A stretch of 64,000 nt of DNA, from IMG/VR virus record IMGVR_UViG_3300045988_125846, positions 64,001 through 128,000 of that record; one strand, 5' to 3'. How positions within the stretch are numbered: the stretch's first letter is position 1; every line of letters starts with the position of its first letter. Below the pieces are notes generated by a model. That model saw only the letters and a program-made list of their open reading frames with translations, did no database searches and was not told the DNA's origin. This document shows, piece after piece, positions 8,965 to 51,680 of this stretch. The position numbers were made by a program, and so were the translations under genes. Source of the stretch: a virus.

Positions 8965-9028
8965 ATAATATTATTTCCATATTTAATTGTGTAACTTAGG
9001 AATTTTAATTGCAGAAAACGCTTGAAGC

Positions 9029-9194: not shown

Positions 9195-9223
9195 ATAATA
9201 CTCCAAACATTTGTTCTTGTCAA
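9195..9223 (-). promoter_or_regulatory. sigma-A-type promoter (TTGACA-17-TATTAT) upstream of the tRNA-Gln/tRNA-Met pair
   Basis: rc of 9195-9223 reads TTGACAagaacaaatgtttggagTATTAT. Confidence 0.45.
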
Positions 9224-9295
9224 CGCATTTCCAGAACATTCGTTCGAGATTTGTTCGTTTAATATTTTTATTATATAATACTTCAAGTCCTATAA

Positions 9296-11461: not shown

Positions 11462-11466
11462 AATTA

Positions 11467-35884: not shown

Positions 35885-36121
35885 ATGTGTAGTCTATGTA
35901 ACAGATATGATGGTACGCACGATCCACGATGTCCTTACTATTCTCCTACTCGCCCAAGAATAACTTGCTGCTATTGCAACGAAGGAATTTATCAAGGCGA
36001 AAGGTATCTTGATAATGAACAAGGAGAATATATACATGAGGATTGCGTTGGATCTGCTGGAATTAATTGGATGATTAATTGGTTAGGATTTAGATATGAA
36101 ACGGAGGAGAACGATGAATAA
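35885..36121 (+). CDS. hypothetical zinc-binding protein
   Basis: CSLC..CPYY..CCYC..EDC clusters. AAGGAGAA RBS. Confidence 0.55.
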   Translation: MCSLCNRYDGTHDPRCPYYSPTRPRITCCYCNEGIYQGERYLDNEQGEYIHEDCVGSAGINWMINWLGFRYETEENDE

Positions 36122-36389
36122 GATTATTAGAAAAATCAAGAAGATGTTCTGTAAATCTGGACAAGTATATAAGGTAAATATCAAAGACATTATTATATCA
36201 GAAGAATTCAGGGCTACTCACCCTAGATTCAAGAAAATGGTACAAAAACGTGAATTTTACCGTAAGAATAATATGTATGAGTCGCTGGTTATACTCAACA
36301 GAGATTTTATGCTGATAGATGGATATACTACATATTTGCTCTGTTTAGAGAATGGTGAAAAATATGTTGATGTTTATTTTATGGATTAG
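36114..36389 (+). CDS. small ParB-N/Srx-like domain protein
   Basis: Start moved to MNKIIRK (GGAGGAG RBS). IKDIIISEEFR..(30 aa)..LIDGYTTYLLCLENG resembles the ParB N-terminal domain. Confidence 0.45.
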   Translation: MNKIIRKIKKMFCKSGQVYKVNIKDIIISEEFRATHPRFKKMVQKREFYRKNNMYESLVILNRDFMLIDGYTTYLLCLENGEKYVDVYFMD

Positions 36390-36459: not shown

Positions 36460-36924
36460 ATGGCTGGTACAGTTGAAAAAGAAACCAATTTTTATCTATA
36501 TAAGATTATAGATAAAGACGAATTAGTGTATATTGGGAAGTCAACTAATATTGATAATAGAATTGAAGTTCATAGCGTTATAAATAATCATTTTGATAAA
36601 AACATGTATTTTACATGTAGAGGAGAAAGTATATCAAATTTAGTTATTTATATTGCCAACGTTCCTGACGAGTATCTTTTGTCAATATATGAAATAACAT
36701 TAATTTCAAAATATAAACCACTATATAATAACAGCGACAAGTATGATACAAAACATCTATTAAAGTTACCACAAATAAATTGGTTTCCATATGTATCAAA
36801 AGAAAATTGTGAAGTAATTTATAACATGAAAACAGGCAAGATTATTGATCCTTGTTTAATAGATACACCATTAAAAAGATGGAATATTTTAAAAGATTTA
36901 CATATGGAGGAAATTAAATGTTAG
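36460..36924 (+). CDS. GIY-YIG nuclease-domain protein
   Basis: FYLYKIIDKDELVYIGKSTNIDNRIEVH carries GIY-x10-YIG and the conserved R. Confidence 0.6.
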   Translation: MAGTVEKETNFYLYKIIDKDELVYIGKSTNIDNRIEVHSVINNHFDKNMYFTCRGESISNLVIYIANVPDEYLLSIYEITLISKYKPLYNNSDKYDTKHLLKLPQINWFPYVSKENCEVIYNMKTGKIIDPCLIDTPLKRWNILKDLHMEEIKC

Positions 36925-39686
36925 ATACACAGATTAATATGTATTCGGTTGATACAGGTCATTTTTATAGCAATCATGAAAAATACTTACATCAAATGAA
37001 CTGTAAATACAGACGTGAAAGAAATTATGTAAATAATATGCTTCCAAAATTAGAAGAAGAACTCGTAACGCAGGGTTACAACAAAGATGATTTTTCTGAT
37101 TGGAAACGTTGTACCGTTGAAGACTACTATGAACAAGAAAATGATTCTGTAAAAGAATATATGAAGTGGTGTTTGATTATAAAACACAAAAGAGAGAAAG
37201 CAAATTTATCAAAAGAAAAACTTCTGAATCTTTTATCAAATAAGACAATTCAAAAAGAGAATCTATCGAATAAAATCGAGTATTGCAAATCGCATAATAT
37301 TCCATATAATAAAAAAATCGAATTAAGAGAGTTAAGAAAAGATGAACTAAATGATAATAATATCATTTCAGTATTTGAATCTTCCCTTACACGTATTATT
37401 GGCATTAAAAAAGACGAACTAACAGACGCTCTTATTGTAGTTCAAGTTTATTATTTTGATGTATTTAAAGATTTGTCTTTTTATGGGTTTATGTATAATG
37501 GCGAAAAATACAGATACTTTACATCTTCTGCTGGTCAAATCCGTAAGAAAAAAGCTGTTTTTATTAAAGAATCAGTATGGAATGAAGTTGAAAAGACAGT
37601 CATGTGTGGTCTTACTATTGATAAAATAAACTCAAAGGGTGGAAACAATGTTAATAAACATCTTGCGTATATGGCATTGGCGAATTCAGCTACTGACCAG
37701 TGGAATGATTTTGATATAGACAGATGTATTGTTGTAGATGATTTTGAGACGAATGTGCCAGGAGAATTTGATTTTATTGATGAGACTGATTATTCGATTG
37801 AGAGAAAAACTGGTACTGTTCCGATTACTCATACTGATGGAGCTGGCATGATATTACCAAGCGTAATGACGAAAAACACAATGTTTCGTGCTCCATGGGT
37901 GAAAGGTTTATTGGGAGTATTTGATTTTAAAAAGTTTATTGAAGTAAATAATTGCTCTCCTATTATCACAGATATTTATGGGCAAGATCATGATGTAATT
38001 GCTGAAGATATTAGAATAATTTTCACAAAAAGTCAATTTAAGATGTATAAGTTTTATGATTCATGGGATGAGTATAAGACATATTTTAAGCAATATCATT
38101 GTCAAGCTGGTAGATGTAACACTGAGGAAGATAGAATTAAAAATGCAAAAATCAATTATCAGATGTTGCAAACTCTCACAAATGTAACAGATGAAGAGAT
38201 TGATTTACTTACAAAGAAGTCTGTGGAGCGAATCACAAATATCTGTAACTCTGTTGATACTATGAAAGATATTCTTGGAATTACACCTTATAATACAAAT
38301 ATGACAGCTTTTCAAAAAGCAGTAAAGATTTATCCTGCTCTACTCAACGATACATATGCAAAAGACGTGATCCGTGAAGTAAAGAATAGCCTTTTAAAAA
38401 AATATAGAAGTGGAAAACTTGAAATAAATGGAAAATATACTTTCTTACTTCCAGATTATTATGCAGCTTGTGAGTATTGGTTTGGACACATTGATACGCC
38501 TAAAGGATTGTTGGCAGACAAAGAGGTATTTTGTTGGTTATTTAAACAATATGATAAACTTGACTGTCTAAGAAGTCCTCACCTCTACAAAGAACATGCT
38601 ATTCGTTTTAATGTAGCGAATAAAGTATATGAGGAACGAGTTGATAAAATCAGAGAATGGTTTACAACAAATGCGGTATATACAAGTACATATGACTTGA
38701 TTAGTAAAATTCTTCAGTTTGATGTTGATGGAGATAAATCATTGGTAGTTGCTGATCCTGATTTTGTAAGAATCGCAGAACGTAATATGAATGGTGTTGT
38801 ACCACTCTATTATAATATGCGTAAAGCAGAGCCAAGAATTTTGAATAATCAAAGTATTTATGAAGGATTAAATGCGGCATTTACAGGTGGAAACATCGGT
38901 GTTTATAGCAACAATATTTCAAAAATCTGGAATAATGATGTATTTATCAATGGAACAGATGAGGAAAAAGAACATGCAACTAATTGTGTCAAGCGTTTAT
39001 GCTGTCAGAATAATTTTGTTATTGATTACGCTAAGACATTATACAAGCCTGAGTTTCCAGAAACAATTGGTGAAGAAATTAAAGAGTTTACCAATCAGAA
39101 ACTTCCTGCATTCTTTGAATACGCTAAAGACAAGGAAAAATCACAAGTTGATGATAGAAATGATAGTTTTGTAAATAAACTCTACTATCGTATTCCTAAT
39201 AAATCAATTAATACAAGAGGTATGAAACTTGGAGAATTAAAATATAAGGATATGATGAAAAATCCTGATATTGTATGTTCTAAAGAGGTATCTGATTTGT
39301 ATGATGAATTGAACAAGAAGTACCGCTATATGGTCAATATGAAGGATGAATATATTGATAATCTTCATTATGTGGCTTGCTCTATTAGAAATCAATTTGC
39401 AGAGCTTGGATATTCGGAAGAAATGATTGCTGATATGCTCATTCAATATTTATATGGTGGGGAAAAACGTGCGAAACAATTGTTTTGGTTTTGTTATGGT
39501 CAGTATATTGTTACTAATTTAGAGAATAATCCAAATATCAAAAAGAAAAAGACTAAAATGATTCAATGTATTGATTGTGGTAAATGGATTGAAGTTGATT
39601 TTATGTCCAAGTCATGTAGATGTGAACTTTGTCAGCATGAATATCGAAAACAGCTTGATCGAGAAAGAAAAAGAAAAAACAAGTAA
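36918..39686 (+). CDS. candidate single-subunit two-barrel RNA polymerase (YonO/QDE-1-like)
   Basis: 922 aa. LRSPHLYKEH (nt 38571) lies 50 aa upstream of QFDVDGDKSLVV (DVDGD at nt 38721-38735), matching the RxPxxH...DxDGD catalytic-barrel pattern. C-terminal zinc ribbon CIDCGK..CRCELC. An HU-like gene follows. Confidence 0.55.
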   Translation: MLDTQINMYSVDTGHFYSNHEKYLHQMNCKYRRERNYVNNMLPKLEEELVTQGYNKDDFSDWKRCTVEDYYEQENDSVKEYMKWCLIIKHKREKANLSKEKLLNLLSNKTIQKENLSNKIEYCKSHNIPYNKKIELRELRKDELNDNNIISVFESSLTRIIGIKKDELTDALIVVQVYYFDVFKDLSFYGFMYNGEKYRYFTSSAGQIRKKKAVFIKESVWNEVEKTVMCGLTIDKINSKGGNNVNKHLAYMALANSATDQWNDFDIDRCIVVDDFETNVPGEFDFIDETDYSIERKTGTVPITHTDGAGMILPSVMTKNTMFRAPWVKGLLGVFDFKKFIEVNNCSPIITDIYGQDHDVIAEDIRIIFTKSQFKMYKFYDSWDEYKTYFKQYHCQAGRCNTEEDRIKNAKINYQMLQTLTNVTDEEIDLLTKKSVERITNICNSVDTMKDILGITPYNTNMTAFQKAVKIYPALLNDTYAKDVIREVKNSLLKKYRSGKLEINGKYTFLLPDYYAACEYWFGHIDTPKGLLADKEVFCWLFKQYDKLDCLRSPHLYKEHAIRFNVANKVYEERVDKIREWFTTNAVYTSTYDLISKILQFDVDGDKSLVVADPDFVRIAERNMNGVVPLYYNMRKAEPRILNNQSIYEGLNAAFTGGNIGVYSNNISKIWNNDVFINGTDEEKEHATNCVKRLCCQNNFVIDYAKTLYKPEFPETIGEEIKEFTNQKLPAFFEYAKDKEKSQVDDRNDSFVNKLYYRIPNKSINTRGMKLGELKYKDMMKNPDIVCSKEVSDLYDELNKKYRYMVNMKDEYIDNLHYVACSIRNQFAELGYSEEMIADMLIQYLYGGEKRAKQLFWFCYGQYIVTNLENNPNIKKKKTKMIQCIDCGKWIEVDFMSKSCRCELCQHEYRKQLDRERKRKNK

Positions 39687-39725
39687 AATTCCGCATATCT
39701 TTAATGATATTTTGCACCCATTAGT

Positions 39726-39766
39726 AATGGACTATTTTTAAATGTTATTTTTCTAAATAGTCCATT
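39726..39766. repeat. perfect 12 bp inverted repeat AATGGACTATTT / AAATAGTCCATT
   Basis: Read directly; 17 nt loop. A third copy, TTATGGACTTT, lies at 39769-39779. Confidence 0.6.
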
Positions 39767-39887
39767 CATTATGGACTTTCATTTGTGTCTATATGGAGAA
39801 CAACATATCATATAGGCATAAGCCTAATTTACAAATTAAGATATGTTTCTATAAACGAATTCGTGCAGTTGGGAGGAATGATTATTT

Positions 39888-40184
39888 TTGACAATTACAC
39901 AGGAAAAGATTATTAAAGAAATCGCAGAGAAGGAAGATATAAATGTAGCGACAGTCCGTAAAGTATTCAAAAGGGCAGAGAAATGTATATTCGCCTACCT
40001 ATCTTCTACTACTCCCACTGATAATACAGTGGTAAAAATTTTAGATGGATTAAGTTTGGAATGTAAATATATTCCAGAAAAAGAAATCCATACATATGAT
40101 AATATCCAATGTGAGGCAAAAATTTGGACGAAACCAAAAATAACTCGTTATTACAATAGAAAGCTAAATGGATATTTTGATTAA
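39888..40184 (+). CDS. HU/IHF-like DNA-binding protein (divergent)
   Basis: 98 aa, TTG start after GGGAGG. KIIKEIAEKEDINVATVRKVFKRAEKCIFAYL..VKILDGLSLECKYIPEKE follows the HU layout. Confidence 0.45.
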   Translation: MTITQEKIIKEIAEKEDINVATVRKVFKRAEKCIFAYLSSTTPTDNTVVKILDGLSLECKYIPEKEIHTYDNIQCEAKIWTKPKITRYYNRKLNGYFD

Positions 40185-40590
40185 AACAATGAAATCAGCT
40201 TTTCTTGGCTGATAAAACAGAGAATATATAATTGTCGGAAGACATTAGAACAACGTCCTATACGGACGCAATATAACACAAATTAAATTCAGAACAGTGA
40301 TTTAGATCTCGTATCATACTGAGGCAATAAAGTCCATAGAGACAATGTATGTGGTGCAAGCAGCCATAACTGCTAACTTTAATGTTAGGTTGGTAAACCT
40401 ACGGATAATCAGCTTATTTGGTGAACTGATAAAATCTAAGAGATTCCATCGCTACTAATTCATTGGCGGTTCTGAACAATTCTAAAGATCATTTCTAAGA
40501 TTGGTACATATTCATATTGTACTCCTCTTCTTATATGTATCGGTGACTGTGCTACAATTCTTGCAGTATGGTTGCCGATTATTCTTTTAA

Positions 40591-40663
40591 TCTCTTATAG
40601 CTCAGTTGGTAGAGCATCGCACTGTTAATGCGAAAGTCGTAAGTTCGAGTCTTACTGGGAGAG
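40591..40663 (+). tRNA. tRNA-Asn (GTT)
   Basis: TCTCTTA-TA-GCTC/GAGC-TCGCA[CTGTTAA]TGCGA-AAGTC-GTAAG[TTCGAGT]CTTAC-TGGGAGA-G. Confidence 0.85.
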
Positions 40664-41497
40664 CTTTTCTACTTTTGTAGGACTGGTTGGTTTCGGATCA
40701 GGAGATGTTAAATCTCAAAAATAAGCATGGCGACATGTATAAAGTGGTTCTTATCGTATTATAAGGCTGCGACTGTGAAATACAGTTTAACGGAAAACAC
40801 ATAAAATCTACGCCCAACCTTCTATTCAAGGACAACTGTTGGCGAATATGGTTGATTGGTGGGTGTCTTGAAATAGGCACTGTAGTAACACAGAAATGTG
40901 GGTATGATTTGTGTACTATTGGTGGGAATACCGCAAGTATAACCGCTGGTAGGATTTTGGTAATATCTCTTAAGTTGAAAAACAGGGATGGAATCAAAAG
41001 GCAAGGAGATCGCAATTCGAGCAGGATGGTGATGATTGGGCTGTACTCAAAAGGTACGGATGATCAAATGTACACCTCATCGTCCATAATAAGTACATGC
41101 TTTTGAAAGAAATCAAATTATTTTAGGTAAATAATATTTAAAAGAAAATTACAAAACAGCAAAAGTGTGTGCGACCGCAAAGAGAAAAACAACTTATTCA
41201 CCTGTAATATGGTGACATATAGCACTCGCAAGGTGTTATATGAGAAAGTACAAGTACGTGCAATTCTAATAGGCTGCAACCTATGAATCTCGCAAGGAAG
41301 AATGTGCCGAAAGAAAATCTATAATACTTTGTGGTAAGAGTTTGCCGGTTATGTCAAAACTGGTGTTGTTGCTAACTACAAGTTAATCGCTTGTGTGATA
41401 AACTGTGTCCAACCACAGTAGATGTTAGTGTATTGAGTCAAATATCTCAGCTCATATTAAGTAATGATCTCATACTTCGGTATGGGATTTTTTATTT
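40664..41497 (+). ncRNA. candidate large structured non-coding RNA(s) between tRNA-Asn and tRNA-Lys
   Basis: About 830 nt with no credible ORF and visibly higher GC than the flanks. Repeated CGCAAG-type and GAAA-capped hairpins; their coordinates are listed in the finding for 40664-41497. Ends in a UUCG-capped terminator. Confidence 0.45.
41469..41494 (+). terminator. intrinsic terminator
   Basis: CTCATAC-TTCG-GTATGGG followed by ATTTTTT. Confidence 0.65.
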
Positions 41498-41498
41498 A

Positions 41499-41573
41499 GA
41501 GTGTGTAGCTCAGTTTGGCAGAGCACTCGACTTTTAATCGAGTTGTCGATGGGTTCAAATCCCTCCACGCTCA
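41499..41573 (+). tRNA. tRNA-Lys (TTT)
   Basis: GAGTGTG-TA-GCTC/GAGC-CTCGA[CTTTTAA]TCGAG-..GGG[TTCAAAT]CCC..-CACGCTC-A. Confidence 0.85.
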
Positions 41574-41827
41574 CTCTCTTCTGCTATTCGGCAGGAAATA
41601 AATCAAGAAAGAAGTGAAAATTATTTTATTAATTAACAAAACAGAAGCCTTTGCAATGAGGAAACTTGTTGGAAATGAGAATGTAAAAAAGACTTATAGT
41701 GGTCATTCTAAATACTATCTGGTTGAGTCTTATCAGAATTTAAAGGCTTTAAGTAATTATAGAAAAAGTAAAATCGTTGGATAGAGACGAAATCTAAAAT
41801 GAAAGGTGGTCGGAAACCATCGGTACA

Positions 41828-43057
41828 ATGAAATTTTATGATACTAATGCTATTTTAAAACTACAGGACAAAATTTTTGAGGAAGATTTTATCATAAGTT
41901 CTGTAACATTACAAGAATTAGAGCATATTAAAGTATCTCGAAACAAAGATGATCATGTAAAGTATGAAGCACGAAAAGTTTTGCACCTACTTGATGATAA
42001 TTCGGATAAATATGAAGTTGTTGTATATGACAACGCAATTGAAAATTACATACTTGAGAAAAATATGGAAATAACACCTGATACTAAAATAGTTGGTAGT
42101 TGTGCATTTGTAAATACAATGAAGGATGTTATTTTTATTACAGATGATATTGCTTGTAAAATGATTGCAAGTAAGATATTTAATCTTACTGTAAAAGGTG
42201 TAAATGATGAGCCAGTAGATGATTATAGTGGATTTATTGAGAAGACACTTTCAGAGTCAGAAATGGCTTATTTTTATGAACATTTGCAGGAAAATACCTA
42301 TGGATTACTTGAAAATGAGTATCTTATCTTAAAAGATTCTAATACTCATGCCGTTGATACTCTCGTTTGGCGAGAAGGAATGTACCAAAATATTAAATTC
42401 CCTAATATTAAATCAGATTATTTTGGCGTAGTTAAACCTCTTAATGGAGATATTTATCAGCAAATGGCTTTAAATAGTTTCTCTAATAATCAAATTACTA
42501 TGATTAAAGGTTCTGCTGGTACAGGAAAATCATATCTTGCGGTTGGATATATGATGTGGTTACTCGAAAAACACAAGATTGATAAAATTGTGATTTTTGC
42601 CAACCCAACTCCTACTATGAATTCGGCTAAGATTGGATTTCTGCCAGGAACACAGCTAGATAAGCTCGTTGATTCAAGTATTGGTAATATGCTTGCTGGA
42701 AAACTTGGAGACAAGTTTATGATTGAACAGCTTGTGTCAAGAAACAAGCTTTCTATATTACCGATGTGTGATATTCGAGGATTTGATACAAGTGGTTTAA
42801 ATTGTGCGGTCTATATTACAGAGGCGCAGAATTTAGATATATCACTCATGAAACTTGCATTACAGAGAATTGGAGAAGATTCAATCTGTATTATAGATGG
42901 CGACTATAACACTCAGGTCGATCTCAATCAATATGCAGGCAATAATAATGGTATGAGAAGAATGTCTGAGGTATTCAGAGGACATGATTTCTATGGAGAA
43001 ATTGAATTACAGAACATCTACAGAAGTAAGATTGCTGCTGTAGCTGATGACATGTAA
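41828..43057 (+). CDS. phoH: PhoH-like ATPase with an N-terminal PIN-like domain
   Basis: 409 aa. N-terminal FYDTNAIL..ITDD (PIN-like). Walker A is IKGSAGTGKSYLAVG, followed by the conserved PhoH C-terminal region (FLPG..K..P). Confidence 0.8.
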   Translation: MKFYDTNAILKLQDKIFEEDFIISSVTLQELEHIKVSRNKDDHVKYEARKVLHLLDDNSDKYEVVVYDNAIENYILEKNMEITPDTKIVGSCAFVNTMKDVIFITDDIACKMIASKIFNLTVKGVNDEPVDDYSGFIEKTLSESEMAYFYEHLQENTYGLLENEYLILKDSNTHAVDTLVWREGMYQNIKFPNIKSDYFGVVKPLNGDIYQQMALNSFSNNQITMIKGSAGTGKSYLAVGYMMWLLEKHKIDKIVIFANPTPTMNSAKIGFLPGTQLDKLVDSSIGNMLAGKLGDKFMIEQLVSRNKLSILPMCDIRGFDTSGLNCAVYITEAQNLDISLMKLALQRIGEDSICIIDGDYNTQVDLNQYAGNNNGMRRMSEVFRGHDFYGEIELQNIYRSKIAAVADDM

Positions 43058-43080
43058 AATATTATGAAATTGGAGGCTAA

Positions 43081-43719
43081 ATGCCTATGAATAAAGATTA
43101 TTTACAGTTAGAGTTTGATAGTTTAGGAAATGAAGCAAATTATAAACTTGCAGATCCGACTCTTGTTGATTATTATAAGCGATTAAATAATCGTGAAATT
43201 CTCATCAATCAAGATATTGATGACGGAATTGTAGAATGGACTCAGGAAATAGTTGAATGGAATAGAGAAGACAAGGATATAGCAATTGCCGAAAGAAAGT
43301 CAATTAAGATTTGGATTAATTCAAATGGTGGTTCTCTTAATGCAATAAACGAGCTTATTAATATCTGTAATCTTTCTAAGACACCAGTTTATGCTATTGG
43401 AATGGGAAAATGTTACTCCGCAGGAGGGCTTTTGCTTATGGGTATCCCAAGGGGCAACAGATATATCCTGTCGTCTACCGAAGCACTTATTCATGATGGT
43501 TCTACAGGTAGTTACGGAGATACTGGCAAGGTACTTGATGATTTAGAGAGAACTAAGAAAATCGAGGAAGACACAAAACAGTTTATTTTAAGTCATACAA
43601 AGATTATTGAGAGTGAATATGATAAAAATTATCGTAAAAATTGGTGGCTAGACGCTAACGAGATTATTGAAAAAGGTGTAGCTGACCACATTATTACAGA
43701 TATTGAGGAATTATTTTAA
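43081..43719 (+). CDS. clpP: ClpP-family serine protease-like protein
   Basis: IWINSNGGSLNAINELINICNLSKTPVYAIGMGKCYSAGGLLLMG..ALIHDGS parallels the ClpP core (S and H positions). Confidence 0.7.
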   Translation: MPMNKDYLQLEFDSLGNEANYKLADPTLVDYYKRLNNREILINQDIDDGIVEWTQEIVEWNREDKDIAIAERKSIKIWINSNGGSLNAINELINICNLSKTPVYAIGMGKCYSAGGLLLMGIPRGNRYILSSTEALIHDGSTGSYGDTGKVLDDLERTKKIEEDTKQFILSHTKIIESEYDKNYRKNWWLDANEIIEKGVADHIITDIEELF

Positions 43720-43765
43720 GGAGGGCGCACTGCTCTCCTATTTTATTGGAGAAAAAGGAGAAAAT

Positions 43766-43975
43766 ATGGTAGATAGTAAAATTAAGAAAGCAACTGTTAG
43801 TGCGGCTAAAAAGAATATCACAGCAAGTGGAGTAAGAATTGAAAATGGAACCTTCGTTGACGATGAAGGTTCTATTGTAGATCGTATTGCTGAGAAGTTA
43901 CCAAAAGGTACAACTATCTTTGATATTAAAATCAGTATTGAGATTTCAGATGAAGAGTCTGAGTCTGCTGAATAG
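43766..43975 (+). CDS. hypothetical protein
   Basis: Start moved to MVDSKIKK (AAAGGAG RBS). Confidence 0.5.
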   Translation: MVDSKIKKATVSAAKKNITASGVRIENGTFVDDEGSIVDRIAEKLPKGTTIFDIKISIEISDEESESAE

Positions 43976-43982
43976 AGAGTAG

Positions 43983-44978
43983 GTGGATGTTATAATCGAC
44001 TTACATAGATTAGAAAATGAAACAGGTTTTGAATGGAAATTAAGATGTTGTCTTGCAAAGAAACGTAAAGAGACAGATATGGATTGGATTGAAATTCGAG
44101 ATATGCTTGGATTGAACATTACACCAGATCAGCTTAGAAAACAGGCAGTCGGATATGAAGAATATGATAATTATATTCACAACTGCGAGGGTGCATCTGA
44201 AAGAATTTTATGTGTGTCAGATGTTCATATTCCGTTTAATTTACCTATTGATATTTTTACAAGCTATAAGGGAATTGTAGATACTTTAATAGTCAATGGT
44301 GATTTATTGGATTGTTTTTCATGTTCTGCATTTCCTAAAAAATTCAAAGTAAATCTTGATGAAGAACTTGTTTTAGGAAGACAGTATATTATTGATTTAA
44401 TCAATCTGACTACACCTAAAAAGGTAATGTTTGTGATGGGAAATCATGAATACCGTATGCAAAGATACTGTTCTGATAGATTATCAAACGAATTACTTGG
44501 CATCATCCCAACAGATCCGCTAGGAATGATTGTAGACGATGGATTCAAAGTTAATGATGAAAGAAATAAAACCCAGACACAATACTCTTCTATTCGTGAA
44601 GTGTTTGAAGATTCAAATATTGAAATCGTTTATGATAAAGAATGGTGGATAAAAGAAGGTAATGTAATTTTCTGTCACCCATTAAATTATTCATCTGGTA
44701 TGTTAAAAACAACAGAAAAGGCAGTCAATTATTTCTTGCGTGTAGATCGCACATTTACTGGAATCGTAATGGCTCATACCCATAAAGTAGGAAGTTTTAC
44801 TCAAGGTGGAATAAAAATGTATGAGCAAGGTTGTGTGTGTGATTTGGATAAGCTGGATTATAACAACGGTAAACTTATAATTCCAAATCAGAACGGGTTT
44901 ATGTATCTTGCATTGGATTCAAATGGTGACATTATTGATTCCAAGACAAGAATTATTACTAATTTCATGACAAAGTAG
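43983..44978 (+). CDS. calcineurin-like metallophosphoesterase
   Basis: GTG start. Motifs VSDVHIP, NGDLLD, MGNHEYR and MAHTH. Confidence 0.75.
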   Translation: MDVIIDLHRLENETGFEWKLRCCLAKKRKETDMDWIEIRDMLGLNITPDQLRKQAVGYEEYDNYIHNCEGASERILCVSDVHIPFNLPIDIFTSYKGIVDTLIVNGDLLDCFSCSAFPKKFKVNLDEELVLGRQYIIDLINLTTPKKVMFVMGNHEYRMQRYCSDRLSNELLGIIPTDPLGMIVDDGFKVNDERNKTQTQYSSIREVFEDSNIEIVYDKEWWIKEGNVIFCHPLNYSSGMLKTTEKAVNYFLRVDRTFTGIVMAHTHKVGSFTQGGIKMYEQGCVCDLDKLDYNNGKLIIPNQNGFMYLALDSNGDIIDSKTRIITNFMTK

Positions 44979-45005
44979 ACCAAGTACAAGTGACTTGGTT
45001 TTTAT
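44979..45005 (+). terminator. intrinsic terminator
   Basis: ACCAAGT-acaagtg-ACTTGGT followed by TTTTTAT. Confidence 0.65.
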
Positions 45006-45185
45006 ATTATGCATAAGTAACTATGAAAATTGGGCTAATTTTCTACTTTTAATTAGTCCGATTGTATAGAAATTGTGATGTTGCTGTCACAATTGTATGT
45101 ATCGGAGGGAGTGTACTCAAATGAGACACTACCTTCTTTTTGTATTAAAAAAATAAATAATTGAGAAAAAAAGGAGAAAATTAAA

Positions 45186-45470
45186 ATGACAAAGAACGAG
45201 GTATTAAAGGCAGTAGTAAATAAAGTTGAGGGAGCTTCACAGAAGGATATCGCAGTTATTCTTGATGCTTTTGCTGATGTAATCACAGAGACATTAACAG
45301 CAAACCACGCAGAATCAGTTGCAGTTGGAAAACTTGGAAAGTTTAAGGTCAAGACAGTTCCAGAGCGTAGAGGAAAAATTATGATGGGCAATCGCAAAGG
45401 TGAGGAGTATGTAACTCCACAGCATGATGAGATTTGCTTTAAGATGTCAAAGTCTGCAAAACAGCTCTAA
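45186..45470 (+). CDS. hup: HU-family DNA-binding protein
   Basis: MTKNEVLKAVVNKVEGASQKDIAVILDAFADVITETL..VAVGKLGKFKVKTVPERRGK is the canonical HU pattern. Confidence 0.85.
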   Translation: MTKNEVLKAVVNKVEGASQKDIAVILDAFADVITETLTANHAESVAVGKLGKFKVKTVPERRGKIMMGNRKGEEYVTPQHDEICFKMSKSAKQL

Positions 45471-45491
45471 TTCTAAGGTGGTGAAAATATA

Positions 45492-46166
45492 TTGAAAACA
45501 TTTGGTTTTACAGATACAAATGATTTTGCTGAATTTTTAGCAGATACTTTTGACAAGCTGGATGTTTGTACAAGAGATTATGACGATGATTGTTCAGAAA
45601 TTGTAGTTGTGGCTAAGTATGATGTGATGAAAGATGTTCTTAATTCTGTTATTAAGAATACGAATTTTAAACTTGCTTCTTGTAACGATTTGAATGATCC
45701 TTATTTGGACGGTTATGATGATGCATTTATTCTTAGTATTGATTCTGAAATGAATGTATGTGTTCAGGTTGTTAAGTATGAGGGAAGTGATACTTATATC
45801 AATATGAATGAGACAGACATTGTGTTTATTCATGGAGATGTAAGTTCAGCTTTTGTTAAGGACAATAAAGATTCTGGATGCATTATTCATGAATTCAACA
45901 TTGGTGATGACGCTGAAGATGTAGACGATGATTGTGATGGTAATTGTAAGAATTGCAGTTGCAGTGACGTAAGTGATAATTCTCATAAAAATATTACATT
46001 TGATAAAGATGAAAACGGAAAAATTCACGGATTTACTTCTGTTAAAAGTGATGTTAATGGATATGAAAAGCGTGAATTTTATTCTAGTAAGCCGATTGAT
46101 TTAAGTGATTTTGACGAATATAATTCGGTTGGAAGATTATTTGATTTGCTTGATTTTATTTTTTAA
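45492..46166 (+). CDS. hypothetical acidic protein
   Basis: 224 aa, TTG start after AAGGTGGTGA. D/E-rich with a Cys cluster CDGNCKNCSC. Confidence 0.55.
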   Translation: MKTFGFTDTNDFAEFLADTFDKLDVCTRDYDDDCSEIVVVAKYDVMKDVLNSVIKNTNFKLASCNDLNDPYLDGYDDAFILSIDSEMNVCVQVVKYEGSDTYINMNETDIVFIHGDVSSAFVKDNKDSGCIIHEFNIGDDAEDVDDDCDGNCKNCSCSDVSDNSHKNITFDKDENGKIHGFTSVKSDVNGYEKREFYSSKPIDLSDFDEYNSVGRLFDLLDFIF

Positions 46167-46173
46167 ATATTTG

Positions 46174-46205
46174 GAGTGTGCGGTGTATGCTGCACACTCT
46201 TTTTT
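46174..46205 (+). terminator. intrinsic terminator
   Basis: GAGTGTGC-ggtgtatgct-GCACACTC followed by TTTTTTG. Confidence 0.65.
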
Positions 46206-46209
46206 GTAT

Positions 46210-46293
46210 GGGTAATTAAACAACTACGGAGATTGGCGAAACTGTAAATTTCGTGGCTTTTGCATCGAGTGGGTTCGACTCCCTCATTACCCA
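46210..46293 (+). tRNA. tRNA-Tyr (GTA), class II with a long variable arm
   Basis: GGGTAAT..CGAAA[CTGTAAA]TTTCG-long arm-GGG[TTCGACT]CCC..ATTACCC-A. The D-arm is AT-rich and weak. Confidence 0.7.
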
Positions 46294-46458
46294 CTTTTGA
46301 TGTTTCTGTGAATGGAAACAGGGAATAGATATATGTGCTCATGATTAGTGTCATAGCTGATTGTGGGATTTATGATGAATATATAAAAATGCGACAAGAA
46401 GCGGTTAGTTAATGATACTACTGCTTCTTTTTTGTTATATGAAAGGAAGTGAGATTTA

Positions 46459-47493
46459 ATGGGTAGAAAAATACAGCATAACAATATTGTTACTGATGAG
46501 TTATTGGCTCAGTGCAATAAAGAGAATATAAAGTTAGGAAATGACTTTTTGGATTATCTTCGTTCAGTTGATAGATCCCCAAATACAATCAATGCGTATA
46601 GGCGTGACCTTTTTATTTTTTGGGTTTATCTGCTTCAGCATTGTGACAACAAATTCTTTATTGATTTATCTAAGAGGGATATTGCTCATTATCAGAGTTT
46701 TTGCCTTACTGAATATAAATGGTCGCCAGCTAGAATGCGTAGAGTAAAATCTACTCTTTCTTCTCTTTCAAATTATGTGGAAGCTATATTGGACGATGAG
46801 TATGAAAATTTTAAACCGATTATACGCAAGATTGAAAATCCTGCAAATGAGAAAGTATTTACTAAAACTGTATTATCCGATGAACAAGTACAGGGTATGC
46901 TTGATTTTTGGGTTGAAAAAGGTAAATATGACAAGGCTTGTATTTTAGCATTAGCTGCATTTAGTGGCAGACGTAAGAGTGAGTTACCACGATTTAAAGT
47001 ATCTTATTTCGATGATGAAAATATTATATACGGTTCTTTATATAAAACACCTGAAAAGATTCAAACAAAGGGAAGAGGCTCTAGGGGCAAAATGTTGACG
47101 GTATATACACTTGCAAAACCGTTTAAGCCATATTTTGATTTGTGGATGAATTATAGAAAAGAACACGGAATTGAATCAGAATGGTTATTTCCAAAGAAAG
47201 TAAATGGAGAATATATAGATGAACCTATGGATTCAAGCACTCTTGACAGTTGGGCTGATACATTTAGTAAGCATTTAGGAGAAGACTTTTATTTTCACAG
47301 TCTTCGTCACTTCTTTACAACTTCTTGTTCTCGAAGCGGTCTTCCTGATGATGTAATTCAAATGCTAGTTGGTTGGAGTTCGCTAGATATGGTATCAGTG
47401 TACAAAGATATTGACGCTGATGAGCAATTTGCAAAATATTTTGCTGATGGAGAAATAAAACAAGTAGAACAAAAATCACTTTCTGATTTGTAG
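46459..47493 (+). CDS. tyrosine recombinase / integrase (second copy)
   Basis: 344 aa with SPNTINAYRRDL (core-binding), AAFSGRRKSEL (R), FHSLRHFFTT (H-x-x-R) and LVGWSSLDMVSVY (W/H..Y). Confidence 0.85.
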   Translation: MGRKIQHNNIVTDELLAQCNKENIKLGNDFLDYLRSVDRSPNTINAYRRDLFIFWVYLLQHCDNKFFIDLSKRDIAHYQSFCLTEYKWSPARMRRVKSTLSSLSNYVEAILDDEYENFKPIIRKIENPANEKVFTKTVLSDEQVQGMLDFWVEKGKYDKACILALAAFSGRRKSELPRFKVSYFDDENIIYGSLYKTPEKIQTKGRGSRGKMLTVYTLAKPFKPYFDLWMNYRKEHGIESEWLFPKKVNGEYIDEPMDSSTLDSWADTFSKHLGEDFYFHSLRHFFTTSCSRSGLPDDVIQMLVGWSSLDMVSVYKDIDADEQFAKYFADGEIKQVEQKSLSDL

Positions 47494-47749
47494 ACAATCC
47501 CGATGAAACTTTTGTCTAACATTATTTTTCCACTATCAGCCATAGAAATGTTCGTGCTTCTCTGCGTTAATGAGAACCTTAATTGTCGGATGAGAGACAA
47601 TAAACCTTATCAACTGGTCTTTGCTCCGAAGACTGAAAATATGTGGAGAATAATCAATAAGCATGAATGGATTGCGAAAGTTTTCTAATTTAAAACTGCA
47701 TGTGTACAGTGCAATATCAGCTAGTTAGTGCTTTATGCTGATTATACTT

Positions 47750-47821
47750 GGCTCTATAGTATAAAGGTAATTATATCCGACTGTCTATCAGAAGATTTGG
47801 GTTCGATTCCCAATAGAGTCG
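47750..47821 (+). tRNA. tRNA-Asp (GTC), AT-rich with one C-A mismatch in the anticodon stem
   Basis: GGCTCTA..TCCGA[CTGTCTA]TCAGA..TTGGG[TTCGATT]CCCAA-TAGAGTC-G. Position 37 is T, which is unusual. Confidence 0.6.
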
Positions 47822-47823
47822 CT

Positions 47824-47897
47824 GTGTTAGTAGCTTAGTAGGTTAAAGCGTCAGATTGTGGTTCTGAATATCGTGGGTTCAAATCCCACCTAACACC
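47824..47897 (+). tRNA. tRNA-His (GTG)
   Basis: GTGTTAG-TA-GCTT/AAGC-TCAGA[TTGTGGT]TCTGA-ATATC-GTGGG[TTCAAAT]CCCAC-CTAACAC-C. The nucleotide at -1 is T rather than G. Confidence 0.8.
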
Positions 47898-47946
47898 TAA
47901 TGATTAAAAGGAAAACGAAAAAATAAAAGAAAGGAGTGTACATACA

Positions 47947-48240
47947 ATGGCAAGTAGATTATCTATTGAAAATGATAGATTAAAAGTCGGTCAAGTAAAA
48001 CGAGTAACATCGAATAATGGAAATAAAATTGATTCTATTACTCTTCTGCTTAATGAATCTGTGGAAGTTTTATTTGCACCAAATGGAAATACATTGGAAT
48101 TTACGGTATCAAATCCAAATATTGATATGAGCAATTTGGACTGTACTATTGATAAAGAGACTTTAAGGGACTTAGTAATCAGTTTCAAAGATGCTTATAA
48201 TCAGATAATTTCAAACGAAAGTGAGGGGACAAATTCATGA
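47947..48240 (+). CDS. hypothetical protein
   Basis: 97 aa, AAAGGAG RBS. Confidence 0.55.
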   Translation: MASRLSIENDRLKVGQVKRVTSNNGNKIDSITLLLNESVEVLFAPNGNTLEFTVSNPNIDMSNLDCTIDKETLRDLVISFKDAYNQIISNESEGTNS

Positions 48241-48710
48241 AATTAGATCAGAAATTTAATGTAGAAAATGACATCGCAAGTGTAGATATTACTGTTACAA
48301 GTCTTGGCACTGCTGATTTGACAAGTGAGCAGGAAAAAGAATTACTTGCAAATTACAATAAGTATATCGAGTATAGTAAAATACAGTTCAAGGGAAATAT
48401 CAAGCTTAATAATGGTGTTCCAGAAGTAACAACAGATCCAAAAGACGATTCTACTATTGTTGAATTGGAGATTACGGATGTAACAAATGAGAGAAAACTT
48501 GTCAATGAAGATTTAGCATTTCATTTTGAAAGAGATGTAACAAAATATCCTGATACAGTATTAAATACTGTTCTTGATAAGAAGGAACTGTATGCACAGG
48601 CTCAGTGTGTATTATTTGCTACAAAAGTTAAGGAAGCTGTTACTGAGAAGTTAGCTGAAATTCGTGCGTTGAATAATACTTTCGAAGGAACTACAGAATA
48701 TACTCTGTAA
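48237..48710 (+). CDS. hypothetical protein
   Basis: 157 aa, 4 nt overlap (ATGA) with the upstream ORF. Confidence 0.6.
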   Translation: MKLDQKFNVENDIASVDITVTSLGTADLTSEQEKELLANYNKYIEYSKIQFKGNIKLNNGVPEVTTDPKDDSTIVELEITDVTNERKLVNEDLAFHFERDVTKYPDTVLNTVLDKKELYAQAQCVLFATKVKEAVTEKLAEIRALNNTFEGTTEYTL

Positions 48711-48744
48711 AAAATAATGGGTGGTACTCTTCCACCCTAAATAT

Positions 48745-48815
48745 GGGGCATTAGTCAAAAGGTAAGACAATGGATTTTCATTCCATGAGTATCGGTTCGA
48801 GTCCGTTATGCCCTA
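48745..48815 (+). tRNA. tRNA-Glu (TTC)
   Basis: GGGGCAT-TA-GTCA..AGAC-ATGGA[TTTTCAT]TCCAT-..ATCGG[TTCGAGT]CCGTT-ATGCCCT-A. Confidence 0.8.
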
Positions 48816-48823
48816 TTTTTTAT

Positions 48824-48900
48824 GCGGTAAGCCTGATGTGAAAGCTTATCTTTTGGATGCATACGAAATTTAGTGTGTAAGTTCAACACTTACTACCGCC
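48824..48900 (+). other. tRNA-like element / possible pseudo-tRNA
   Basis: A perfect T-arm GTAAG[TTCAACA]CTTAC and 6 bp acceptor-like pairing GCGGTA/TACCGC. I could not build a canonical D-arm or a 7 nt anticodon loop. Confidence 0.25.
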
Positions 48901-49006
48901 CTATGCCCTTTGCGGTCTTCGGACTGGTACTGTTGTAACAATAGGATACGTCCTATGCAGTTTAGATGAAAGCTCGCCATTCGAGGATGGAATGAGAAAG
49001 GCAATA

Positions 49007-49675
49007 TCATTTTGGAATTTTATCAAATATCAATTTTCTTAACTTGAGTTGATATTTATCATAATGAGATTCCCAATCAAATTCTTTTGTATTATCTAAG
49101 ATATCTTGTTTGAGATTTTTGAGTTGTTGTTTATCTGTTTTATGCTTCATGATAATCGGTAATTCGTTAATCTCGTTCTCATAAAATAAAATGGTTGCAA
49201 TAATACAATTCTTATTGGCAAACAACGCAACTAATTCTTGTTTTGTACCCAATACAATTTCAGCCATACCTACTACTCTATTCGTAGTCATAGCTTTACG
49301 AAGAAGTTCATATTCGATTTCTGACTCCATTTCAGGAATTAAATAATATGATTTATCTATGAGTAGGTCTGATATTTCTTTTGATTTACAGAAATATTTT
49401 ATTGAAAGTGTTCTATCTTTGTTTGATGTAATTGATTCTATATCATATTGTTCCAAAATAACATACTTATCTTCTGCATATTTATATCCTTTTACAATAT
49501 CTTCATTGTGGATTTCTTTATTACAAGATGGACAAAATTTGATATAACGCACTCTTTCTTTGGAGTCTTTGCAGAGTTGATTAAGTTCTATAGAACTGTT
49601 GTGTGATGTTTTTAACATTTTTACGGGAATATATAAATCTTTGAATTGAATTGCAGTTTTATATGAAGCGTTCAT
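49007..49675 (-). CDS. ku: Ku-like DNA end-binding protein
   Basis: 222 aa with AIQFKDLYIPVKMLKTS..IELNQLCKDSKERVRYIKFCPSCNKEIHNEDIVKGYKYAEDKYVILEQYDIESI, which aligns by eye with the bacterial Ku (YkoV) N-terminal core. Confidence 0.8.
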   Translation of the reverse strand: MNASYKTAIQFKDLYIPVKMLKTSHNSSIELNQLCKDSKERVRYIKFCPSCNKEIHNEDIVKGYKYAEDKYVILEQYDIESITSNKDRTLSIKYFCKSKEISDLLIDKSYYLIPEMESEIEYELLRKAMTTNRVVGMAEIVLGTKQELVALFANKNCIIATILFYENEINELPIIMKHKTDKQQLKNLKQDILDNTKEFDWESHYDKYQLKLRKLIFDKIPK

Positions 49676-49733
49676 GATAGTTTCTCCTTAGATACTTTTG
49701 GTTTAGTATATGGAGAAATTTGAAAAATATTAT

Positions 49734-49807
49734 CTGGATATAGGACAATTTGGTAGTCCGCTAGTTTTGGGAACTAGACGTTGTAGGTTCGAGTCCTACT
49801 ATCCAGA
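49734..49807 (+). tRNA. tRNA-Pro (TGG)
   Basis: CTGGATA-TA-GGAC/GTCC-CTAGT[TTTGGGA]ACTAG-ACGTT-GTAGG[TTCGAGT]CCTAC-TATCCAG-A. Confidence 0.9.
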
Positions 49808-49900
49808 CTACTGCTCTATACAGTTATAACCGGTTTGGCGACTGATTGGTAAATATTGGAAGAAAGAGTCATTTCCTTTGGAGTGGCACTTTTATTATAT

Positions 49901-49973
49901 ACACCTTTAGCTTAATTGGTAGAGCAACGATCTCCAAAATCGTCAGGTCTATGTTCGAATCGTAGAAGGTGTG
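49901..49973 (+). tRNA. tRNA-Trp (CCA)
   Basis: ACACCTT-TA-GCTT..GAGC-ACGAT[CTCCAAA]ATCGT-CAGGT-CTATG[TTCGAAT]CGTAG-AAGGTGT-G. Confidence 0.9.
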
Positions 49974-50035
49974 CTAAGTGAAGTGAACTAAATTGTCAAA
50001 ACATTCAAAATATTTGTACAAATGGTTTTATATAC

Positions 50036-50064
50036 AAAAAATAGAGAGTATTGTCAACTCTCCA
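50036..50064 (-). terminator. intrinsic terminator
   Basis: Minus strand: GGAGAG-ttgacaatac-TCTCT followed by ATTTTTTG. Confidence 0.5.
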
Positions 50065-50077
50065 TTTAATTATACTA

Positions 50078-50377
50078 TTACCATAAATCAACGGTATTTT
50101 CTTTATTTACTTCTACCAAGTAATCTTCATCTACATTAAATGGTTCGGGTTTCTTATTGCACTCATAGCATAATGGAATTATGTACCATTTATTGCTTTC
50201 ATGTGTTTTCTTAACGTGTGCTCCCACTTTTGCACGATTATAGCATTCCTCACATTGACAATATGTTGGGAATGGGAGTAAAGATTTATTTTCCCAATAT
50301 GTTATCCAAGAGGAGCAACCTTTAGGATTTGAATATCTATCTTTTGATGTTCCGTTGATGTTTTTAACTTCAACCAT
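50078..50377 (-). CDS. Cys-rich protein, possibly an HNH-like (beta-beta-alpha metal finger) nuclease
   Basis: 99 aa with CQCEEC..GAHV..SNKWYIIPLCYECNK. The spacing resembles an HNH/HNN core. This is a weak call. Confidence 0.3.
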   Translation of the reverse strand: MVEVKNINGTSKDRYSNPKGCSSWITYWENKSLLPFPTYCQCEECYNRAKVGAHVKKTHESNKWYIIPLCYECNKKPEPFNVDEDYLVEVNKENTVDLW

Positions 50378-50622
50378 TATATCATCTCCTTTTATAAGTT
50401 TGACATATTTTATCGCAATCTGTCGAATTAGTCAAGTGTAAATTGTGTAAAAGAGAATAAATATATAGCCAACTATGAGAGGATTGTTACTGTTTCGGTT
50501 GCAGGTAGTTGGATTATGGAGTGAGAAGCCTTTGACTGATCATCTTAGGTATAGTAGATACTCGCACTACTCTCTCACTCTATTTTAATTGGTTTTGCGA
50601 GTGGAAAGCGAGAAAAGAATAT

Positions 50623-51636
50623 ATGGGTAATTATAAAAGAAATGAAGAAAACAAAAAAGATAGTAATCAATGTGGAATTTATTCTATAACCAATAAATTA
50701 AATGGTAAAAGATATATAGGTCAAACCTACAATTTTAAATATAGATGGATGAGACATAGAAGTTATCTAAAGCACAATACTGAACACAATGCACATTTAC
50801 AAAATGCATGGAATAAATATGGTGCAGAAAACTTTGAATTTGAAATTATTGAAAGATGTAAATTTGAACAGCTAGATGAACGAGAAATTTATTGGATAAA
50901 CTATTATGATTCCAAAAATGCGGGATATAACTTTGCAGATGGTGGACTCGGATGTAAAGGTTATAAACACACTGATGAAGAAATTGCAAAAATGAGAATG
51001 ATTCAAAATCCTGAACCAATTGTAATGCTTGATCTAAATGGTGAGTATATAAGAACTTTCGTCAGTGCAGGTGAAGCATGTGATTTTTTAGGCAAAAAGT
51101 CAACAAGTGGAATTAAAAGATGTTGTGAAAAAGATAAATATAAAAAGGCTTATGGATATATTTGGATCTATGAAAAAGATTATAAATCAGGAAACATAGA
51201 TTGGAATTATTATTTATCTAAAAATAAAAATCTTCCTAAGCCAGTATTGCAATACAACTTTAATATGGAACTAATCAAAGAATATGCTTCTGCTTACGAT
51301 ACAAGCAGAGAAGGATTTAATTCTGCAACAGTATCGGCAGCTTGTAATGGTAAGTATGATACATATAAAGGTTATATTTGGATTTGGAAAGATAATCCAG
51401 AAATCTATTATAAAAATAAAGCCAAACGAAAAGAAAAGGCTTTAAATAATAAAAAAAGTAGAGAAAGAATTATTTTACAATATTCAAAAGAAATGGAATA
51501 CTTAAAAGAGTGGACTTATGATGAGATTTTAAACAATAATTTTAATTTAAGAGCAATTCAAAGCAATTGCTCTGGACATACAAAAACATCACAAGGTTAT
51601 ATATGGAGATATAAATCAGAAGAGTCGGTTGCTTAA
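50623..51636 (+). CDS. GIY-YIG homing endonuclease with three NUMOD-like DNA-binding repeats
   Basis: GIYSITNKLNGKRYIGQT..RWMRH..ENFEFEIIE..EREIYWINYY..GYN. Triplicated [YG]YIW[IR][YW]K repeats (AYGYIWIYEKD, YKGYIWIWKDN, SQGYIWRYKSE). Confidence 0.85.
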   Translation: MGNYKRNEENKKDSNQCGIYSITNKLNGKRYIGQTYNFKYRWMRHRSYLKHNTEHNAHLQNAWNKYGAENFEFEIIERCKFEQLDEREIYWINYYDSKNAGYNFADGGLGCKGYKHTDEEIAKMRMIQNPEPIVMLDLNGEYIRTFVSAGEACDFLGKKSTSGIKRCCEKDKYKKAYGYIWIYEKDYKSGNIDWNYYLSKNKNLPKPVLQYNFNMELIKEYASAYDTSREGFNSATVSAACNGKYDTYKGYIWIWKDNPEIYYKNKAKRKEKALNNKKSRERIILQYSKEMEYLKEWTYDEILNNNFNLRAIQSNCSGHTKTSQGYIWRYKSEESVA

Positions 51637-51653
51637 ACTACTCTTCTTTTTTA
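51618..51653 (+). terminator. intrinsic terminator overlapping the end of the endonuclease gene
   Basis: AGAAGAGT-14 nt-ACTCTTCT followed by TTTTTATT. Confidence 0.6.
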
Positions 51654-51680
51654 TTGGAATAAAAGGAAGGAAGTGACAGA

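Follow-up and report, generated by a model that had tools for sequence, protein, structure and literature searches.

A predicted YonO-family two-barrel RNA polymerase and its diverged HU-fold neighbor in an SPβ-like prophage of gut Lachnospiraceae

We analyzed a 64,000-nucleotide stretch of viral DNA (positions 64,001 to 128,000 of IMG/VR record IMGVR_UViG_3300045988_125846), referred to here as the window, and found that one of its open reading frames (ORFs), at 36918-39686, is predicted to encode a single-chain RNA polymerase of the YonO/QDE-1 type. Sequence comparisons and a structural model support assignment of the 922 aa product as a phage-encoded two-barrel enzyme and a new member of a known family. 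YonO-type polymerases have been recognized from sequence since 2003 and studied biochemically since 2017. The gene is part of an SPβ-like prophage in a gut Lachnospiraceae chromosome and is followed by a small gene whose product we relate below to the DNA-binding protein HU. Taken as a whole, the evidence is best explained by a YonO-family polymerase whose single active site is built from two double-psi beta-barrels and which serves late transcription, a reading we consider very likely. Coordinates of all features are collected in Table 1.

Homology and fold of the polymerase

The original prediction, made from the DNA letters alone, had assigned this ORF to the YonO/QDE-1-type polymerases on the basis of a catalytic-barrel signature. 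The profile and structure comparisons that it had proposed both returned two-barrel polymerases. The Pfam family RdRP (PF05183) matched two stretches of the protein with 46.2 bits, above its gathering cut-off of 23.8 (E=3.6e-12), while phrog_8308, a family of unknown function, covered it end to end (E=4e-247). A translated search (tblastn) against 50,697 annotated phage genomes identified YonO of phage SPβ (44% identity to residues 129-906) together with homologues in Clostridium phage D-1873 (49.5% identity) and Psychrobacillus phage Perkons (42.5% identity, full length), each with E=0. Remoter matches were found in Enterocloster, Thomasclavelia, and c-st phages, and no protein more than 50% identical was present in these genomes. 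An exhaustive search for relatives recovered 1,192 clusters (50% identity, E<=0.001), of which 372 reached E<=1e-30.

Structural comparison was based on an AlphaFold2 (AF2) model built from an alignment of 72 homologues (43-96% identity), which also served for all estimates of conservation. The model reached a mean predicted local distance difference test (pLDDT) score of 89.4 and a predicted template modeling (pTM) score of 0.82. Foldseek returned 11 significant matches from the PDB (E 4e-15 to 6e-8), all of them plant RDR2 or fungal QDE-1, with a probability of 1.00, approximately 800-900 aligned columns, template modeling (TM) scores of 0.43-0.51, and 11-13% identity. No other fold appeared below E<1 in this search, and no multisubunit polymerase chains were among the matches. 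The best matches among viral models (BFVD) were phage models labeled "RNA dependent RNA polymerase" (E=1.6e-27).

QDE-1 (Neurospora) and RDR2 (plants) share with the window protein a catalytic fold of two barrels in one chain, with the signatures D...R-x4-K and R-x-P...DxDGD. Both serve silencing by copying RNA. The phage branch represented by YonO instead transcribes DNA, and the window offers no RNA interference context. An RNA-dependent enzyme that copies or amplifies phage or host RNA would fit the Pfam family name "RdRP", the RNA dependence of RDR2 and QDE-1 as the sole solved structural neighbors, and the label "RNA dependent RNA polymerase" given to relatives by their sources. We nevertheless regard such an activity as very improbable. 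SPβ YonO, at 44% identity, strongly prefers DNA templates and is required for late-gene mRNA (PMC5467207). The Pfam name stems from the eukaryotic founders of the family and not from its phage members, and the gene layout agrees with that of SPβ.

Conservation of the active site

The polymerase ORF opens with an ATG codon preceded by a GGAGG ribosome-binding site. The first residues of LRSPHLYKEH and QFDVDGDKSLVV are 551 and 600, a start-to-start distance of 49, and R552 lies exactly 50 residues before D602. DVDGD (602-606) is the single occurrence of D.DGD in the protein, and two CxxC pairs are found at 884-887 and 902-905. The length of 922 aa, the spacing of 50 residues, and the terminal CxxC...CxxC had all been read correctly in the original prediction. 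R552, P554, D602, D604, D606, and the four cysteines were invariant in the 72-sequence alignment, as was H555. As this invariance extends across homologues of 43-96% identity, the motifs are not chance matches.

Eight residues are invariant in all two-barrel polymerases, represented in QDE-1 by D709, R738, K743, R962, P964, D1007, D1009, and D1011 (Ruprich-Robert and Thuriaux, PMC2919709). Their counterparts in the window protein are D307, R324, K329, R552, P554, D602, D604, and D606. All eight were invariant in the 72 homologues, and they keep the order and local spacing of QDE-1, including R-x4-K. R552 and P554 are equivalent to R962 and P964 of QDE-1 and to R446 and P448 of Rpb1 (PMC2919709). 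The multisubunit beta/beta-prime core likewise places eight invariant residues around two Mg2+ ions and carries a loop of the NADFDGD type (PMC2919709). It is a five-subunit assembly of approximately 400 kDa, in contrast to the single chain of approximately 105 kDa predicted here. No trigger loop, flap, or clamp is detectable in YonO (PMC5467207).

SPβ YonO resembles the window protein over nearly its full length and shares the RSPH...DxDGD motifs, the C-terminal CxxC...CxxC, and the eight active-site residues. It is shorter (839 versus 922 aa) because the window protein carries a helical insertion at residues 41-128. Alignment coverage of this segment was 0.93 in close relatives versus 0.37 in the SPβ/Clostridium/Bacillales group, and the segment is largely missing from SPβ-type YonO. 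We considered an N-terminal extension and rejected it, as residues 1-40 align with YonO and the surplus length is internal. Within the AF2 model, the four-cysteine ribbon forms two short strands (879-883 and 890-894).

The same conservation bears on whether the protein has lost catalysis or serves another purpose, such as replication priming or a structural or regulatory role. Its clade is known from sequence alone, and a different DNA transaction would be compatible with the insertion at 41-128 and with the tight linkage to a gene for a DNA-binding protein. Invariance of the eight catalytic residues and the zinc ribbon at 43-96% identity indicates purifying selection on catalysis, however, and the nearest characterized homologue is a genuine transcriptase. 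We therefore judge a non-transcriptional role to be the least probable of the readings considered, with only a slight chance of being correct.

Prophage setting and the predicted role in late transcription

The left end of the window consists of host DNA, including a P-type cation ATPase gene (1749-4349, minus strand). It is followed by tRNA-Met and tRNA-Gln (8654-8964) at the host-prophage junction and then by an integrase gene (10481-11470, minus strand). The presence of host ATPase, tRNAs, and integrase at this end indicates that the element is an integrated prophage. Strand bias flips near 33-34 kb, and from 34 kb onward the genes run rightward as far as the window extends. Their order is a phrog_2467 protein, small ORFs, a GIY-YIG gene, the polymerase, the 98 aa ORF, tRNAs, and the presumed late region, in which a Metallophos gene occupies the position of YonJ. 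Relatives carry the Pfam families YonK, YonJ_N, YonG_N, and YonV_C in matching positions, identifying them as SPβ-like prophages. Close relatives were found in 44 species genomes, almost all Lachnospiraceae. Among the relatives are scaffolds recorded under strain names and not as metagenome-assembled genomes, from Lachnospiraceae bacterium A4 and 28-4, Faecalicatena contorta NLAE-zl-C134, and Lactonifactor sp. BIOML-A5.

The window and SPβ thus share a layout: a temperate, siphovirus-like prophage with the polymerase near a divergent junction, followed by a hairpin, an HU-type gene, a non-coding stretch, and late genes on the same strand. They differ in host (Bacillus for SPβ, Lachnospiraceae for the window). 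SPβ YonO is a strict DNA-dependent RNA polymerase that forms stable elongation complexes (Forrest et al. 2017, PMC5467207). It strongly prefers DNA templates and nucleoside triphosphates (NTPs), yielding an RNA product, and compared with bacterial RNA polymerase it has higher processivity and lower accuracy (PMC5467207). Replacement of its aspartate triad with asparagines abolished RNA synthesis, and 37 late genes forming one operon require the enzyme (PMC5467207). The same paper leaves open the promoter sequence of YonO and any need for a cofactor. The original prediction had also suggested rifampicin insensitivity, and rifampicin goes unmentioned in PMC5467207.

From the experiments on SPβ YonO and the common gene layout, we infer a role in late transcription for the window polymerase, with template specificity and timing to match. 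Under this model, D602, D604, and D606 together with D307 would hold two catalytic Mg2+ ions, while R324, K329, and R552 would touch the incoming NTP and the RNA 3' end. The C-terminal four-cysteine ribbon and the helical insertion (41-128) would decorate this core. After prophage induction, host polymerase would make the 922 aa enzyme, which would then transcribe the extended rightward late region (PhoH, ClpP, Metallophos/YonJ-like, HU, terminase, and structural genes) as a DNA-dependent and highly processive polymerase. As in SPβ, late transcription would probably start downstream of the small HU-type gene, and the same-strand genes beyond it may depend on the polymerase.

Several points weigh against this reading. 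The protein and its Lachnospiraceae homologues are known only from sequence, and at 44% identity to YonO, template preference or timing could differ. The closest solved structures are the RNA-dependent RDR2 and QDE-1, and databases carry the corresponding name. Direct phmmer comparison of the polymerase with PDB sequences gave no match and NCBIfam holds no model naming it, which is why a fold search was needed. D307, R324, and K329 were placed in the first barrel by order, spacing, and invariance rather than by residue-level superposition. Finally, shared 8-12-mers 3' of the HU-type gene were no more frequent than in shuffled controls across approximately 40 loci, so that no promoter was defined.

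A 735 aa ORF (5598-7805, minus strand) shows an unusual pairing of matches to Sigma-70 region 2 and the GmrSD_N restriction-endonuclease N-domain, and sits just outside the apparent prophage end. A second tyrosine recombinase is encoded within the rightward region (46459-47493).

A diverged HU-fold protein beside the polymerase

Of 57 related polymerase loci, 54 carry a gene for a homologue of the 98 aa protein immediately behind the polymerase gene, usually 120-260 bp 3' of it, with identity down to 33%. The original prediction had called this ORF HU-like. The ORF is present and its HU-like character is borne out by predicted fold and by other family members; a direct HU sequence match for the protein itself was not obtained. 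The window protein had no PF00216 match at E<=1, and among Pfam families HU-HIG reached E=0.16. BLASTP against the adjoining HU of phage D-1873 was non-significant, and MAFFT alignment with the neighboring HUs of SPβ, D-1873, and Perkons revealed no similarity. A first profile comparison with HU, based on low diversity, also failed (probability 8%).

The relationship to HU was recovered solely through a diverse family alignment and a fold search. The family comprises at least 416 clusters without a Pfam domain. Among 22 diverse members, 17 matched PF00216 (best E=1.6e-7), and hhalign of the diverse family against HU gave a full-length alignment (E=5.5e-4, probability 30%). The best matches of the family profile to PDB sequences, all weak, were African swine fever virus (ASFV) pA104R, another viral histone-like protein, SPO1 TF1, and HU. 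An AF2 model of the window protein (pLDDT 78.6) shows the topology a1-a2-b1-b2-b3-a3, which is the order of HU, with helices at residues 5-16, 20-39, and 83-93 and strands at 47-52, 55-62, and 72-78. The top five Foldseek matches in the PDB were all HU and full length, with probabilities of 0.85-0.98, TM scores of 0.51-0.64, and E values of 0.1-0.4.

The protein therefore stands in the position of yonN and shares its order of elements with SPβ YonN, SPO1 TF1, and ASFV pA104R. It differs from HU/IHF proteins in the lack of a direct significant match, in PDB E values of 0.1 or worse, and in a predicted beta-arm that is short, is not arginine-rich, and lacks the intercalating-proline motif R-x-x-R-N-P (RNP). 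This arm is the least confident part of the model (pLDDT 59-73), and P63 is nevertheless invariant in the close subfamily. Judged by family sequence and model, the 98 aa protein is a strongly diverged HU derivative that is predicted to bind DNA and whose gene almost always accompanies that of the polymerase.

In SPβ, D-1873, and Perkons, the gene next after the polymerase encodes a canonical HU, so that the adjacency of yonO and the HU homologue yonN given in the original prediction was correct for SPβ and applies equally to the other two phages. In contrast to SPβ, the neighbor in the window has diverged past direct recognition, and the canonical HU is found 5 kb 3' of the polymerase, after the Metallophos gene and in the same place as in relatives. 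As this second gene lies apart from the partner gene, the prophage encodes two HU-fold proteins. The slot after the polymerase is filled in 54 of 57 Lachnospiraceae loci and in SPβ, D-1873, and Perkons, indicating that an HU-fold gene has been kept beside the polymerase across orders of Firmicutes.

An architectural or initiation-related role is possible for the partner protein. One form of this idea is a two-component transcription system in which the small protein would bend or open promoter DNA for the polymerase, with late transcripts starting in the variable cargo slot just downstream. We hold this to be a rather unlikely proposal. A simpler account, to which we give roughly even odds, is that the protein is a plain phage nucleoid or packaging protein that sits beside the polymerase by inherited gene order and has no tie to transcription. 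In its favor, HU proteins have a general architectural function, a second and canonical HU is encoded by this prophage, the pairing is known from gene order alone, and the arm as predicted is without the Arg-rich RNP motif that DNA-bending HUs carry. Adjacency in 54 of 57 loci, despite divergence to 33% identity and the swapping of genes on both sides, is harder to reconcile with mere inheritance, as is the presence of a canonical HU in the same slot of SPβ, D-1873, and Perkons.

Table 1. Positions of the polymerase gene, its motifs, and surrounding features in the window
Feature	Coordinates	Strand	Details
Protein with weak similarity to ParB N-terminal domain, 97 aa	36096..36389	+	PDB profile match
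Free-standing GIY-YIG nuclease, 154 aa	36460..36924	+	Pfam PF01541 E=5e-7
YonO-family single-subunit two-barrel (double-psi beta-barrel) RNA polymerase gene, predicted	36918..39686	+	922 aa, complete
Clade-specific insertion, residues 41-128	37038..37301	+	Mostly one long helix (76-125); helix from AF2 model
First (beta-like) barrel active-site segment, D307 (HTDGxG), R324 and K329 (RxPWxKG)	37836..37904	+	Invariant in 72 homologues
R552-S-P554 motif, second (beta-prime-like) barrel	38571..38579	+	R552 and P554 invariant
D602-V-D604-G-D606 metal-binding aspartate triad	38721..38735	+	Invariant
Putative C-terminal four-cysteine zinc ribbon (C884, C887, C902, C905)	39567..39632	+	4/4 Cys invariant in 72 homologues
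Terminator-like hairpin just after polymerase gene	39759..39777	+	Consensus scan
Highly diverged HU-fold protein, 98 aa, conserved downstream partner	39888..40184	+	TTG start, GGAGGA 10 nt upstream
Long hairpin then U-rich tract, upstream of tRNA-Asn	40539..40579	+	Minimum free energy -19.6 kcal/mol, z=-4.9
tRNA-Asn (GTT)	40591..40664	+	ARAGORN, Rfam
GOLLD-type large non-coding RNA, ~830 nt	40665..41498	+	Rfam RF02032
GOLLD-type RNA, variable 5' half	40665..41023	+
GOLLD-type RNA, conserved 3' domain	41024..41453	+
GOLLD-type RNA, terminator-like hairpin	41466..41489	+
tRNA-Lys (TTT)	41499..41574	+	ARAGORN, Rfam
Presumed late region, start	41828..54512	+	PIN-PhoH, ClpP, 90 aa ORF, Metallophos, HU, recombinase, tRNAs, GIY-YIG/NUMOD endonuclease, large terminase (Pfam)
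Canonical HU/IHF-family DNA-binding protein (true HU of the window)	45186..45470	+	PF00216 E=6.4e-14

The non-coding region downstream of the HU-fold gene

SPβ carries an annotated stem-loop after yonO, equivalent in place to the hairpin that follows the window polymerase. Beyond the 98 aa ORF, 1.6 kb without a convincing ORF extend to the PhoH gene. Within it is a long hairpin with a U-rich tract, a block conserved in related loci L010-L014 although the flanking DNA has diverged. The hairpin may act as a terminator or insulator that separates the early unit from the cargo and late region beyond it, or alternatively as a promoter element. A scan for sigma-70-type promoters performed no better than shuffled sequence (44 sites versus 55 expected).

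A GOLLD-type RNA lies between the two tRNAs of the region. Its 3' portion of approximately 430 nt matched the Rfam model RF02032 from position 1 to 416 of 416 (100.1 bits, E=1e-26). As this score falls below the gathering threshold of 150 bits, we interpret the RNA as a divergent variant from Lachnospiraceae phages. Copies in L013 (93.8 bits) and L017 (61 bits) independently matched RF02032 end to end, and across four copies, compensatory changes were observed at 33 of 108 predicted pairs. Published GOLLD RNAs, which assemble into 14-mer nanocages, come from phages and prophages, are located near tRNAs, and increase in amount during lysis (PMC12286853). The window RNA resembles them in its length of approximately 830 nt, variable 5' half, prophage location, flanking tRNAs, and covariation-backed structure (PMC12286853).

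Searches with nhmmer and a custom covariance model, together with an Rfam scan of eight diverse loci, placed GOLLD-type RNAs in 4 of the 57 polymerase loci. A constant partnership between GOLLD and the polymerase was accordingly rejected. A different gene-free insert of approximately 1 kb with tRNA-Thr occupies the GOLLD slot in the closest relatives, L011 (10432-11507) and L012, and may represent another non-coding RNA.

In SPβ (L001), the published P_YonO primers map to 8090-8113 and approximately 8307-8333, that is, 0.3-0.5 kb after yonN. These positions bracket the start site (2225998 in strain 168) without mapping it exactly. The start site is followed by a non-coding leader of approximately 1.2 kb and then by yonK. 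We searched the SPβ region (7830-9510) for structured RNAs and found a DUF3800-VIII RNA at 9189-9254 (47.5 bits, above the Rfam cut-off) and a sub-threshold skipping-rope match at 7835-7944. As these were the only RNAs found, the YonO-transcribed leader was rejected as a GOLLD or ROOL RNA. The non-coding stretches of the two prophages thus differ in content, with DUF3800-VIII in SPβ and tRNAs plus a GOLLD-type RNA in the window. Given the presence of GOLLD in only 4 of 57 loci and of other inserts elsewhere, we view the slot after the HU-type gene as analogous to the SPβ leader, with variable cargo.

Genes upstream of the polymerase

Unlike in SPβ, a GIY-YIG gene directly precedes the window polymerase, its stop codon overlapping the polymerase start codon. 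No homologue of this gene was found in any of the 57 related loci, and in relatives, homology to the window at the DNA level sets in at 36915, practically at the ATG of the polymerase gene. Together these observations place the gene outside any conserved operon. The slot 5' of the polymerase is variable, with DUF2726-like genes in close relatives L010-L016. The GIY-YIG gene is a window-specific insert in this slot, and is probably mobile.

The original prediction had grouped this gene, a small ParB-like ORF, and the polymerase as a possible operon. The GIY-YIG ORF was verified by its PF01541 match, and the second ORF exists as well, best read as 36096-36389. Its similarity to ParB is weak: neither it nor five relatives matched Pfam, and the profile of this family aligned only weakly with the "ParB domain protein nuclease" entries 5k5a and 5k5d of the PDB (E=0.0035, in the N-domain, and 0.022). 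The gene is present in only 5 of 57 loci. With the GIY-YIG gene absent from all 57 and other genes in the slot, a conserved unit of the three genes is not supported.

GIY-YIG genes were also encountered elsewhere. The window carries a second one, of the GIY-YIG/NUMOD homing type, just before the terminase genes (50623-51636). An insert of approximately 1.2 kb that encodes a GIY-YIG nuclease (L061 3348-4250; L062 3347-4249) interrupts the yonO gene of two SPβ-like phages, BUCT083 and Goe11. The BUCT083 insert gave a weak group I intron signal (20 bits). The GIY-YIG protein upstream of the window polymerase showed no sequence relation to either the nuclease inside BUCT083 yonO or the second one of the window. 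Polymerase matches in L053 (5098-8509), L059 (8001-10874), and L038 (2599-5433) span up to approximately 650 nt beyond 922 codons, which suggests that these genes contain inserts or introns too.

Implications for YonO-type transcription

The polymerase gene itself adds little to what is known, as more than 1,000 related clusters exist at 50% identity, many in prophages of gut Lachnospiraceae. Its surroundings offer more, in the form of two modestly interesting leads rather than demonstrated functions: the HU-fold pairing and a GOLLD RNA in the leader slot. To our knowledge, neither a promoter sequence nor a cofactor is established for any YonO-type enzyme. The HU-fold neighbor is a concrete candidate with which to approach the question left by the YonO paper, namely whether promoters are found by the polymerase alone or with a phage factor. 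The position of GOLLD in the slot of the SPβ leader transcribed by YonO suggests a testable answer as to which polymerase makes GOLLD RNA during lysis. As GOLLD accompanies so few of these polymerases, this link is optional and should not be over-read. If the polymerase and its HU-fold neighbor do form a two-component system, the tRNAs and the GOLLD nanocage RNA would be its first, highly expressed products in lytic growth.

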